The position numbers and the translations under genes were made by a program. DNA of 64,000 nt. It comes from Alphaproteobacteria bacterium. Lineage in GTDB: Bacteria > Pseudomonadota > Alphaproteobacteria > SHVV01. The notes beneath the pieces are model-generated. The model was not told the DNA's origin and searched no databases. It saw only the letters and a program-made list of their open reading frames with translations. Each line of letters opens with the position of its first letter. Position 1 is the stretch's first letter. Where the stretch lies: NCBI GenBank assembly GCA_965261735.1, contig OZ253470.1, positions 1,696,001 through 1,760,000 on the forward strand. The letters run 5' to 3'. This document shows, piece by piece, positions 2,371 to 5,744 of the stretch.

Positions 2371-3120
2371 CTAAGCCCGCCCGAGGCGCGCAACCGCCAA
2401 GTACGGGTGTGGCACGCCCTTCCGGTTGGCGATGATCACCGTCGGCAGAAACTTGCAGCCAGCAGCATCCACCAGCGGCGGAAGGTAGTCCAACACATTC
2501 TTCGTAAAGCCGAAGTCGCGCAGATAGCTCTTAGTGGCGGGGCGTGCCCGCTTCAGCGCTCGCAGGGCGTAGCAGTACGCCGCCTTTATTTGGGGCTTAC
2601 ATACTTAACTTGACAGGCGGCAATCCTGCGCTCGCGTCAGTCGGTACGAACGTAACACAACAGCCCAAGACCGGAAAAACCACTCTTCGGCGACCGCATT
2701 GCAGCTAAGACGGGGGCCACGGCAGCCGGCGAACCTGCCCGTCAAGCTAAGTATGTAAGCCCCCTTTATTTCATAGACCCAATAGGAATCTTCGTCGGTG
2801 TTTTCGAATTGGTACCCCTCGTCGGTCCATTTCAGGTAGGCGACGCAGTTGTCGATGGGCTGCGCATCGAGCGAGCCCCACTCGCCCAAATAGGCGGTCT
2901 CGCCTTCGCCGACCATGTGGCGGCCGAACTTGTGGAACACCGCGCGCTTGCCCTCGGGAAACCGGCGGGCGAGCGCCGCGTCAATCTCGTCGAGGTTTTC
3001 AAGCCCAAGCTCGGGCGCCCACCACACTGGGTAGGTTTCACCGCCGCTGGCGCCACCGAGCGCCGCCCCGCCGCCGAGAAACAAGCCTAGAGCCGCTGCC
3101 CATCCGGCTGCTTTGCTCAC
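2371..3120 (-). pseudogene. Secreted-protein paralogue copy 2, interrupted by MITE and C-terminally truncated
   Basis: GTG 3120 ...WWAPELGLENLDEID...YWVYEIK | MITE | AAYCYALRALKRARP...ANRKGVP; homology is lost near 2412, TAG at 2371-2373. Confidence 0.88.
2592..2763. mobile_element. 172-bp MITE with IS1595-type ends
   Basis: 23-bp TIR GGGGCTTACATACTTA(A/G)CTTGAC with 1 mismatch; 8-bp TSD CTTTATTT at 2584-2591 and 2764-2771; no transposase. Confidence 0.93.
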
Positions 3121-3337
3121 CAAGGTTCCCCGCCTGTTTGGACCAGGATATCTACCATGACGTGCGATTGGGGCGAAAGAAAGGCCTGCCGTGCAGCACC
3201 GGAAGGTGGCGGCGGCGGAATCGCATCGCACGCAGCCGAGCGAGGACCGTAACCGATGGGGTGGACGCCCCTCCCGACGGCATCGCGATGTGCCAGGTTG
3301 GCGGTGTTGTTAACGCCAAGCGAGGAAGGGGGCGTCC

Positions 3338-4360
3338 ATGGAACAGGTTCACATGATCGGGATCGATCTGGCGAAGAACAGCTTTCAGCTGCACGGTGCG
3401 CGGGCGGATGGGTTGGTTGCGTTCCGCAAGAAGCTGAGCCGGGCGAAGCTGTTGGACTTTGTGGCTGCGCAGCCACGCTGCACGGTGGCGATGGAGGCGT
3501 GCGGCGGCGCGCACCATTGGGGCCGGGAGATCGGCAGTCTCGGCCATGCGGTGCGACTGGTCCCACCGATCTACGTCAAAGCGTACGTCAAGCGGCAAAA
3601 GAACGACGCGTCGGATGCGGAGGCGATCTGCGAGGCGTCGTCGCGGCCGACCATGCGCTTTGTGGCTGTGAAGACGGAGGAACAGCAGGCTCGGGGCATG
3701 CTGTTCCGGACGCGCGATCTTCTGGTGCGCCAGCGCACCCAGACGATTAATGCGCTGCGCGGCCATCTGGCGGAGTTCGGTGTCATTGCCCCACAGGGGC
3801 CGGCTCATGTCGGCCGGCTGACCTCGGCGCTTGAGGGACCGGCTTCGAGGTTGCCGGAAGCGGTCCGCGAGCTGGCCGGCCTTCTGCTTGAGCAGATCGC
3901 CGGCCTCGATGCGAAGATTGCGGGCCTGGAGAGGGAGGTCCACGTGAGAGCACGGCAGGATGAGGAGGCGAGGCGCCTGATGAGCGTGCCGGGGATCGGG
4001 CCGATCAGCGCGATGGCAATCCAGGCCTTCGCACCGCCAATGGAGAGTTTCCGGCGCGGCCGCGACTTCTCCGCTTGGCTCGGCCTCGTGCCGCGCCAGC
4101 ACACGACCGGCGGCAAGCCGAAGCTGGGCAAGATATCGAAGATGGGCCAGCGCGATCTGAGACGGCTGCTGATCACAGGCGCGATGACTGTGGTCCGCTG
4201 GGCGGTTCGGCGCGGCGTGACGACGGACCCCTGGCTGGCCGGGATGCTGGCGCGCAAGCCGAGGATGCTCGTCGCGGTGGCGCTGGCCAACAGGATGGCG
4301 CGCATCGTCTGGGCGCTACTGACGAAGAAGGAGAGCTACCGGGCTCCCGCCACCGCCTGA
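3338..4360 (+). CDS. IS110-family DEDD recombinase/transposase
   Basis: IGIDLAK, AMEACG, KNDASDAEAI, GLVPRQHTTGGK, VALANRMARI motifs. Confidence 0.96.
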   Translation: MEQVHMIGIDLAKNSFQLHGARADGLVAFRKKLSRAKLLDFVAAQPRCTVAMEACGGAHHWGREIGSLGHAVRLVPPIYVKAYVKRQKNDASDAEAICEASSRPTMRFVAVKTEEQQARGMLFRTRDLLVRQRTQTINALRGHLAEFGVIAPQGPAHVGRLTSALEGPASRLPEAVRELAGLLLEQIAGLDAKIAGLEREVHVRARQDEEARRLMSVPGIGPISAMAIQAFAPPMESFRRGRDFSAWLGLVPRQHTTGGKPKLGKISKMGQRDLRRLLITGAMTVVRWAVRRGVTTDPWLAGMLARKPRMLVAVALANRMARIVWALLTKKESYRAPATA

Positions 4361-4610
4361 GAGAACGGCGAAGTGCGGGAAGCCGTCGGGGATGTGGGCA
4401 GGACGGAGGACAGGTAAGGGCAAAGGTCAACGAGACCGGGTTGGGAAAACCAGCATCCGAACGGAGAGCTTTCAAGCTCGCGTAACCGATTTGGACCCAA
4501 TCCGCGTATCTCCATACGGGCCCGCGGCGTGTCATCTGCCGCATAGAGAGGCCGGACACACGACAGCACCTGACCGCATGCACCGAGCCGACCAAAAACT
4601 GCTTGCATCA
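4361..4610 (+). ncRNA. Putative bridge/seek RNA of the IS1111-type element
   Basis: Stem 4437-4445/4496-4504 encloses hairpin 4466-4479 and CGTAACCG (matches left flank); ACACACG at 4556-4562 matches the IS right end; exact RNA ends unknown. Confidence 0.75.
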
Positions 4611-4728
4611 ACGGGGGCGTCCACACACGGGCGGTGCGGGAGATGTTCGAGAAGGCGCTGAAGCAGGAGCCGTTCTTCGTCCACCCGACGTGCAAGAAGC
4701 CCTTGAAGACCCTGCACAGCCGCGGCCG

Positions 4729-5622
4729 TTAATAGTAGCTGAGAATCTCGGGGTTAAGGCACGACCTGCTGTTGTCCCCGCGATAGCCATGTGCGTCGAT
4801 CACCCGGAGCACGGCGCCCCGCCGGTCGAGCGTCAGAAAGAACAGAACCGTTGTCGGCAGGCCCCTGGGTTTGCCAAGAAAGAATCCGAGGAAATCCCGC
4901 CTTACCAGTAGATCGTCCAACCCATCCCCGTTGAAGTCGCCGCGGCCGATGATGGAAAAAGCATCCTCATCGTATTTTTCCGTCATCTCGGACGAGCTCC
5001 ACGCCTCGTAGACGAAATGCTCCGGGTCGCGAACGACCAGGTTGACAAAGTGCTTCGGCGGTCCGAAGGCGGGATGGACGAATTGGCTCCACGGCACGCC
5101 GTCCCGGTTAGCCAAGAGTTCGGCCCTCAGGAACTTGCAGCCGGCCGCATCTAGCAGCGCCGGGAGGTAATCCAATACGTCCTGCGTGAAACCGAAGTCG
5201 CGCAGATAGCTCGTCGCGGCCGGGCTTGCGGGCTTCATCGCACGTAGCGCCAAACAGTACGCGGCCTTCAATCGGTAGACCCAGTAGGAATCTTCGTCGC
5301 TGTTTTCGAAGCGGTACCCCTGATCGGTCCATTTCAGGTAGGCGAGGCAGTTGTCGATGGGCTGCGCATCGAGCGAGCCCCACTCGCCCAAATAGGCGGT
5401 CTCGCCTTCGCCGACCATGTGATGGCCGAACTTGTGGAACACCGCCCGTTTGCCCTCGGGGAAAGGCTCGGCGAGCTTGGCGTCGATCTCGTCGAGGCTT
5501 TCAAGCCCAAGCTCGGGCGCCCACCACGCGGGATAGGGGCCCTCGGCCTGCGCGGCGCCGGAGGCAGCCACGGGGGCGAGAACCATGCCAAGGGCTAGCG
5601 CCCATCCGGCCGCGTTGTTCAT
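4729..5622 (-). CDS. Secreted hypothetical protein, intact paralogue copy 3 (297 aa)
   Basis: Signal peptide ending AQA; four Cys; GDFNGDGLDDL FG-GAP/VCBS-like Ca-binding loop near C-terminus. Confidence 0.85.
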   Translation of the reverse strand: MNNAAGWALALGMVLAPVAASGAAQAEGPYPAWWAPELGLESLDEIDAKLAEPFPEGKRAVFHKFGHHMVGEGETAYLGEWGSLDAQPIDNCLAYLKWTDQGYRFENSDEDSYWVYRLKAAYCLALRAMKPASPAATSYLRDFGFTQDVLDYLPALLDAAGCKFLRAELLANRDGVPWSQFVHPAFGPPKHFVNLVVRDPEHFVYEAWSSSEMTEKYDEDAFSIIGRGDFNGDGLDDLLVRRDFLGFFLGKPRGLPTTVLFFLTLDRRGAVLRVIDAHGYRGDNSRSCLNPEILSYY

Positions 5623-5744
5623 CAGACGTCTCCGATTGTTTGGAACATCTACCATGACGTGCAATTCAGCCGAAAGAAAGGCGCGGGTAATGGCGCGACT
5701 GGGGCAAAGGCGGCGCTACCTCCGCCCCGCGTTCTGCAGCGCCC

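Follow-up and report, generated by a model that had tools for sequence, protein, structure and literature searches.

Two groups of insertion sequences in the IS110 family provide the closest described counterparts of the element reported here. For four IS1111 elements, an RNA encoded in the non-coding region 3' of the transposase gene co-purifies with the transposase and is required for movement (Siddiquee et al. 2024, PMC11187229). This seekRNA carries a top-strand match and, 3' of it, a bottom-strand match that shares the insertion point with the first; close relatives have been redirected in nature, and an 82-nt form suffices, with the role of a 145-170-nt form left open (PMC11187229). Durrant et al. 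(2024, PMC11208160) predicted that 93% of IS1111 elements encode a bridge RNA in their right end. The bridge RNA of IS621 has a target loop and a donor loop with the bottom-strand reader 5' in each (PMC11208160), and substrates matching half of the bridge RNA are reported to suffice for excision and to explain about half of off-target insertions (preprint 10.64898/2026.08.31.748434).

We analysed a 64,000-nt stretch of the genome of an Alphaproteobacteria bacterium (contig OZ253470.1, positions 1,696,001 to 1,760,000; hereafter the window), which contains at 3256-4629 an intact IS110-family insertion sequence of the IS1111 type. The element measures 1374 bp counting one copy of its CG core (4628-4629), and all of its features described below lie on the plus strand. 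The 269-nt non-coding region 3' of its transposase gene (4361-4629) very probably encodes a seekRNA or bridge RNA in the same direction as the gene. Comparison with relatives shows that three of the four predicted guide segments match and covary with their DNA partners. An earlier, sequence-only reading of the window, made without database searches, had proposed that this region is the seekRNA or bridge RNA of an IS110/IS1111 element, and this is well supported by the guide-target covariation and by the published layout.

The element and its relation to known systems

The transposase/recombinase gene (3338-4360) encodes a protein of 340 aa with both IS110-family transposase domains (PF01548, E = 5.9e-15; PF02371, E = 4e-22), the range for the IS1111 group being about 330-350 aa. 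It scores 319 bits against the NCBIfam model NF033542 "IS110 family RNA-guided transposase" (cut-off 140), and the PDB entries nearest to it in sequence are the transposases of ISCro4 and IS621 (8wt6, E = 6.9e-10). GLVPRQHTTG of the query aligns on GLTPRRYESG of ISCro4, which places a Thr at the position of the nucleophilic Ser of IS621 and ISCro4. A GL-P----S(T)G motif, with the Thr variant included, is among the features listed for IS1111 transposases (PMC11187229).

The boundaries of the element were fixed by an empty paralogous site on the single 5.03 Mb contig of the source genome (G000:C1 ~778772, minus strand). The sequence there is ...GAGGAGCGCAACCG|GGCGGTGCGGG..., in which a single CG connects the two flanks of the window copy, whereas the occupied site has a CG on either side of the element and no further target duplication. 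The element is therefore 3256-4629 with one CG counted, and the core shared by target and donor is CG. The left end starts with the terminal extension ATGGG (3256-3260), which lies outside the inverted repeat and forms the start of the right donor half ATGGGG; its first four bases, ATGG, are retained in nearly all relatives. It is followed by the left subterminal inverted repeat GTGGACGCCCC (3261-3271), a perfect reverse complement of the right repeat GGGGCGTCCAC (4614-4624), and the right terminal extension ACA with the core CG occupies 4625-4629. The repeats are 11 bp long, within the 7-17 bp with short terminal extensions that characterise IS1111. Non-coding DNA amounts to 269 nt 3' of the gene compared with 82 nt 5' of it (3256-3337), and a longer non-coding region 3' of the gene is the IS1111 layout (PMC11187229; PMC11208160).

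The element fits the IS1111 pattern in every tested feature, and departs from IS621 in the ways in which the IS1111 group is already known to. With the seekRNA-bearing elements ISEc11, ISPa11, ISKpn4 and ISPst6, as far as the accessible account goes (PMC11187229), it shares the long 3' non-coding region, a transposase of about 340 aa, subterminal repeats with short extensions, the order of the guide strands, their overlap at the core, the existence of redirected relatives and the GL-P----(S/T)G motif (T here). It differs from them in having its own sequences and a new target, CGTAAC-CG-TTCGGATGC, and in being known here from sequence alone. It also differs in that the 3' strand of its second loop tracks the right end of the element by covariation, whereas the accessible seekRNA account describes no donor loop (PMC11187229). 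Like the IS621 bridge RNA (PMC11208160; Hiraizumi et al. 2024, PMC11208158), the predicted RNA has two internal loops, a target loop and a putative donor loop; in both, the left side would be read from the bottom strand and the right side from the top strand, and the recombinase has the same combination of DEDD RuvC-like and Tnp domains. The RNA of IS621 is encoded at the left end; the RNA predicted here would come from the right end, on the 3' side of the gene, and the order of the guide strands is reversed in each loop, with the top-strand reader 5'. The core is CG here and CT in IS621, the subterminal repeats are 11 bp rather than 2-3 bp, and a Thr takes the position of the nucleophilic Ser. 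The handshake-guide pattern of IS621 was not recognised here; when such guides were sought beside the core complements in families A and B (defined below), no consistent pairing with either partner was detected. The element can be likened by description to ISPpu9 with its RNA Ssr9 and to other IS110-family elements (PMC12288879), in which a small RNA gene likewise lies 3' of the transposase gene, the RNA also exists in additional copies that lack a transposase, and specific repeats serve as insertion sites.

The locus leaves the known picture of IS110/IS1111 elements unchanged and would not surprise a specialist, being an ordinary example of a system described in 2024. It is of use as an intact and fully readable example of an RNA-guided IS1111 element, in which the core, the ends, the guide segments and the predicted target are defined. 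Two points go slightly beyond the accessible published accounts: the support that comparison lends to a donor-reading segment in the IS1111 group, relative to the seekRNA account of PMC11187229, and the left-arm-dominated insertions in a genome without a perfect target.

Guide segments, their covariation and the predicted fold

The first stem-loop holds the target guides. The sequence-only reading had described a stem at 4437-4445/4496-4504 enclosing a hairpin, GAGCT-TTCA-AGCTC (4466-4479), and both are present as given and kept in relatives. CGGGTTGGG (4437-4445) pairs with CCCAATCCG (4496-4504) with one G:U; the stem shared with relatives, P1, consists of a 5' arm at 4438-4445 and a 3' arm at 4496-4503, to which this copy adds C4437-G4504. 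The hairpin, P2, closes the target loop. In the 5' strand of this loop, 4453-4463 comprises the predicted right target guide GCATCCGAA and the core complement CG, which would pair with CG-TTCGGATGC of the top strand. Reverse-complemented, 4453-4464 gives CCGTTCGGATGC, so that this strand reads the core and then TTCGGATGC. The segment GCATCCG (4453-4459) pointed out earlier is part of this guide, but its CG at 4458-4459 was mistaken for the core complement, which is the CG at 4462-4463. The 3' strand, 4481-4490, comprises the left target guide CGTAAC, the core CG and AT, the first two bases of the element. CGTAACCG (4481-4488) had been recognised as identical to the left target half plus core at the present insertion (CGTAAC-CG, 3248-3255), and the identity in fact extends to 10 nt, CGTAACCGAT (4481-4490 = 3248-3257). 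The pairings of the two target guides overlap on the CG core.

The second stem-loop holds the predicted donor guides. In its 5' strand the predicted right donor guide CTCCAT (4510-4515) would pair with the left end ATGGGG with one G:U, and in its 3' strand the left donor guide ACACA with the core CG (4556-4562) is the same sequence as the right end (4623-4629). Between them, the stem-loop P3/P4 (4519-4553) closes the donor loop, with GGCC pairing between 4519-4522 and 4550-4553 and GCGGC (4524-4528) pairing with GCCGC (4538-4542). The hairpin and both donor segments (CTCCAT and ACACACG) were found where the earlier reading had placed them. The ACG at 4516-4518 was considered as a bulged A followed by a core complement and was rejected, as relatives have ACA with CG cores and ACG with TG cores.

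We collected relatives by a protein scan of genome contigs, in which 595 stretches matched and 537 encode a relative, and kept the best 80 (66-99% identity, mostly from metagenome-assembled genomes labelled Alphaproteobacteria, Longimicrobiales, Binatia and others). Simple end patterns located both ends in 71 of 81 sequences (the window copy and the 80 loci); loci in which these patterns failed (L031, L038-L041, L056, L069, L071, L103 and L104) are excluded from the counts. The core bases at the right end are the same as the two bases before the left end in 67 of the 71, and the mismatching loci (L043, L044, L098 and L102) were retained. Together with two sister copies from the source genome, the 71 located elements make a set of 73 elements with 51 distinct 3' regions, 66 distinct insertion contexts and 44 guide classes.

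Across this set, the left guide matches its own flank at a mean of 5.98 of 7 positions, compared with 2.40 (sd 1.21) for 4146 non-cognate pairs; 18 contexts match at 7 positions, 35 at 6, 8 at 5, 4 at 4 and 1 at 3. The right guide matches its own flank at a mean of 6.14 of 9 positions, compared with 3.92 (sd 0.97) for non-cognate pairs, both scores being the best of five registers because the alignment sets a one-base gap arbitrarily. The left donor guide (4556-4562) occurs in 10 different 7-nt forms among relatives and matches the right end plus core at 7/7 in 11 of 15 distinct pairs and at 6/7 in the other four, three of which are elements with a failed core check.

The same is seen within the source genome, which also contains five copies of a sister family, B, that is 80-82% identical to the family of the window copy (family A). 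The scaffolds of the two families align base for base, and all four guide segments of family B differ from those of family A in step with their DNA partners. The left guide of family B is CAAAAATG(AT), i.e. CAAAAATGAT, and the flank is CAAAAATG|AT; the reverse complement of its right guide is TGTACCACG (TG-TACCACG), and the flank is TG|TACCACG; its left donor guide and its right end are both ACAGATG. One copy, B5, is inserted elsewhere; its guide and its flank differ by one base alike, each having CAAAATTG, and TGACCC is likewise found in both. The covariation of guides with targets in homologues, which the sequence-only reading had named as a check, is therefore found over 44 guide classes and in families A, B and B5. 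Such a number of guide classes on one conserved scaffold, in uncultured bacteria, offers a natural series for testing which guide positions matter.

RNAalifold, applied to a 155-nt stretch of the 51 distinct sequences (alignment A1), recovers the structure proposed in the sequence-only reading. It predicts P1 (4438-4445/4496-4503), a two-pair extension (4450-4451/4493-4494) and P2 (4466-4469/4476-4479), followed in the second stem-loop by P3 (4519-4522/4550-4553) and P4 (4524-4528/4538-4542). Standard pairs are present in 99.1% of 1173 cells (23 pairs x 51 sequences), and two-sided changes occur in 9 of the 23 pairs (52 cells). None of 500 shuffles reached any of the observed structure measures, and sliding the 3' partners by 1-3 columns reduced pairing to 22-45%. 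Most of this signal comes from the first stem-loop: five of the eight P1 pairs have changes on both sides, with 99.3% of cells paired, and both sides of the P2 pair 4467/4478 are changed in 25 of the 51 sequences. P3 and P4 are paired in 98.5% and 99.6% of cells and are nearly invariant, which gives them little covariation support. G:U pairs occur at three P1 positions in 15, 11 and 21 of the 51 sequences and are readable only on the plus strand, which fits a structure read solely on that strand. Covariation across the alignment shows that the predicted RNA has a folded structure. The global fold of the single sequence departs from the comparative structure in its second half, and the comparative structure is used here.

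When applied to the full non-coding region, RNAalifold adds a long-range closing stem between 4392-4399 and 4601-4608, paired in 42-51 of the 51 sequences per column with mostly one-sided changes; we regard this stem as tentative. Its 3' arm lies inside the motif GCTTGCAT (4599-4608), which is conserved in nearly all relatives. The guide RNA may thus have a core at ~4437-4562 and a longer form at ~4392-4608 closed by this stem. Apart from its place in this possible stem, GCTTGCAT could serve as the -35 box of a promoter that arises on joining of the ends. A circle-junction promoter read by eye as TTGCAT-N17/18-CACGAT was weak (3/6 in the second hexamer) and was dropped.

In the mechanism that we propose, the RNA would form two stem-loops whose internal loops bind the target and the donor, respectively, with CTCCAT (4510-4515) in the donor loop pairing with the left end ATGGGG. 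After excision, the ends of the element are joined (...ACA-CG-ATGGGG...), and the RNA-loaded 340-aa DEDD/Tnp_20 recombinase would bring this junction to the target CGTAAC-CG-TTCGGATGC; strand exchange at CG would leave the element flanked by CG on both sides without any other duplication. By analogy with ISEc11, ISPa11, ISKpn4 and IS621, the RNA would be made, bound by the recombinase and needed for movement.

Insertion sites in the source genome

The source genome contains 14 full copies of the element with 99.4-100% identity and identical ends; all 14 start with ATGGGGTGGACG, except one with ATGGGATGGACG, and all 14 end with GGGGGCGTCCACACACG. The guide loops are the same in all of them, the sole difference within 4425-4579 being G4519A in one copy. 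A covariance model of the region finds 15 loci with an identical score, 13 of them full copies and two partial.

The 14 copies provide 12 distinct left flanks. Compared with the guide CGTAACCG, positions -8 to -4 of these flanks have C in 7 of 12, G in 10, T in 5, A in 12 and A in 11, and positions -3 to -1 have C in 12 of 12 followed by the core bases C (12 of 12) and G (12 of 12). AACCG is thus nearly invariant, and other insertion sites do keep the guide sequence, as the sequence-only reading had expected. Matches to the six bases CGTAAC number 3, 4, 4, 4, 5, 5, 5, 5, 5, 5, 6 and 6 in the 12 flanks; at least four bases match in 11 of the 12, whereas among 200,000 CG sites drawn at random from the genome 3.5% reach this level. 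On the right, the 13 distinct flanks match TTCGGATGC at 3-6 of 9 positions, with at least four matches in 8 of 13 compared with 16.5% of background sites, and are enriched for T at +2 (11 of 13), G at +4 (9 of 13) and G at +5 (8 of 13). The right flank starts with TTCG in 6 of the 14 copies (5 of the 13 distinct flanks), with GTTCG in two and with GTTGA in one. These flanks, and two insertions seen in RNA libraries that continue with TTCGG, correct the target given earlier, CGTAAC-CG-GATGC, to CGTAAC-CG-TTCGGATGC, which we predict to be the preferred target of the guides.

At the present insertion the left side matches the guide in 8 of 8 positions and the right target half, GGCGGTGCG (4630-4638), in 3 of 9, in agreement with the earlier observation that this insertion tolerated right-arm mismatches. 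An element with one fixed set of guides is found at 12-13 sites, none of which is a full match. This pattern may be a natural parallel of the half-match insertion described for IS621. It is conceivable, if rather doubtful, that IS1111 guide RNAs in nature use a short seed consisting of the left arm and core (AACCG) and that the right arm is largely dispensable. If so, such insertions would be a natural counterpart of the IS621 half-match, and copies in imperfect sites would be poorly excisable and would accumulate.

Some copies and sites have features of their own. Four copies lie inside 34 kb (G000:C1:3602209-3635946), and three of these have an identical 30-nt left flank; two of the three share a right flank in opposite orientation and the right flank of the third differs, which suggests duplication or recombination between copies. 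The copy at 3602209-3603581 has a length of 1373 nt and is probably frameshifted, as its transposase match is split in two. The window copy is inserted between two tandem paralogous open reading frames (ORFs), 24 nt upstream of the GTG start of the ORF at 2605-3231. Minus-strand ORFs at 2093-2275, 2605-3231 and 4729-5664 are tandem paralogues sharing an N-terminal stretch (...ETYPVWWAPELGLE(S/N)LDE...). Flanks resembling those of the window copy recur at two other places in the genome, both of them empty.

Three relatives from other genomes are located in sibling elements. L032 (1487-1500) lies inside a family-B-like element, in the non-coding region just upstream of P1, with the flanks GGGCAAACG|GTCAATCGAGACGGGAT, and the insertion points of L058 and L100 fall within another element's right inverted repeat (CACCGGGGGCG|TCCATAGACG). 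The guides of all three match these sites. If guides of the same clade are indeed aimed at the guide-RNA region or end repeat of a sibling, this would be RNA-guided insertion of one element into another.

Competing explanations, transcription evidence and possible further guide RNA loci

A number of observations weigh against a two-loop guide RNA and are set out here together with the explanations that they would favour. The single-sequence fold of 4361-4629 is only modestly more stable than shuffles (z = -2.40), so that the structural evidence rests on comparison. In the source genome the right arm is enriched yet far weaker than the left, and no site containing TAACCGTTCGG is present. The matches between guides and flanks might be due to chance, or be relics of captured target DNA with no guiding role, a view to which the weak fold and the 3/9 match of the right flank of the window copy would both lend themselves. 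Chance does not readily account for the 10-mer CGTAACCGAT, which occurs twice in the window where 0.05 occurrences are expected (0 of 100 shuffles reach two), and neither chance nor a relic would be expected to make guides and flanks change together over the 44 guide classes and families A, B and B5. In addition, each of the two guide strands reads a different strand of the DNA and their matches overlap at the core, which is the arrangement of the published systems. We therefore give this explanation practically no credence.

Other observations concern the second loop. CTCCAT, the predicted right donor guide, hardly varies among relatives and neither does the left end (ATGG[GA][GA]), which leaves no covariation to assess. 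Nor does this guide change with the core, and in relatives where it reads ACACCAT opposite ATGGAG or ATGGGG, position 5 is mismatched. Loop 2 may even be dispensable, given that an 82-nt ISEc11 RNA with target matches alone sufficed (PMC11187229). These points could be explained if the first stem-loop were the functional seekRNA and served as a target seeker only, with 4505-4562 acting as a scaffold, a processing signal or a protein-binding element and the likeness of loop 2 to the right end having another cause, e.g. the same protein surface reading both. Consistent with this are the sufficiency of the 82-nt seekRNA for movement with no established role for the long form (in the accessible account, PMC11187229), the lack of covariation of CTCCAT with the left end, the mismatch in the ACACCAT relatives and the near invariance of P3 and P4. 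On the other hand, the segment at 4556-4562 tracks the right end through its 10 forms, and base pairing or direct copying would be needed to account for this easily; moreover, donor-complementary loops have been reported in the IS1111 elements inspected by Durrant et al. (PMC11208160). We consider it unlikely that the RNA seeks targets only, and favour an RNA with both target and donor loops.

The remaining observations concern the guide molecule itself. Part of the element is present in 20 public runs, 11 of which are recorded as RNA, and we checked assembled contigs of four metatranscriptome runs from two studies. These contigs span most of the element, including 4288-4575 (run X1, with 2 differences) and 4443-4575 (run X2, identical), and no inference was drawn from the parts without contig cover. 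Contigs running past 4629 continue with TTCGGG... and TTCGGT..., and those extending before 3256 read ...(C)GTAACCG in four further contexts; these additional junctions agree with the target predicted from the guides. In two RNA libraries from a single study, contigs end at the same position, 4575, where either the RNA may have its 3' end or the assembly graph may simply be interrupted. The contigs give no strand, ends or level, and carry-over of DNA from an element with 14 copies is possible, so transcription of the guide region is only hinted at. A promoter scan of 3150-4750 found no sigma-70-like promoter, and two terminator-like sites in the same interval are at chance level. A search of 3000-4900 against Rfam gave no matches at E up to 1, a result to be read with the caveat that the presence of a bridge RNA model in Rfam 15 was not established.

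These results bear on whether the guide-bearing molecule might be the top-strand single-stranded DNA (ssDNA) of the element, as with the DNA guides of IS200/IS605, rather than a transcript. Covariation cannot separate an RNA from ssDNA of the same strand, in which G:T wobbles would be tolerated too; IS621 is reported to excise mainly as a single-stranded circle (2026 preprint 10.64898/2026.08.31.748434); and the negative promoter scan points the same way. Against this, the NCBI model NF033542 names the protein family as RNA-guided, and contigs from RNA libraries cover the region, which is a weak argument. An ssDNA guide appears to us very improbable, and a guide RNA encoded in the 3' non-coding region is the explanation that we prefer.

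The source genome is rich in IS1111-type elements. NF033542 has 52 matches in it, 36 of which are above the cut-off, and the covariance model of the guide region has 40 matches at E up to 0.01, which fall into at least three score groups, including 16 at 153-160 bits, 6 at 143-152 bits and 10 at about 66.5 bits. Three loci, G000:C1:4368740-4368896 (+), 1967417-1967573 and 2960518-2960674, match the guide-RNA model at 151, 125 and 107 bits, respectively, with no adjacent transposase match listed. The first of these is a fragment confined to the non-coding region and is 77% identical. These loci may be orphan guide-RNA genes or remnants of elements.

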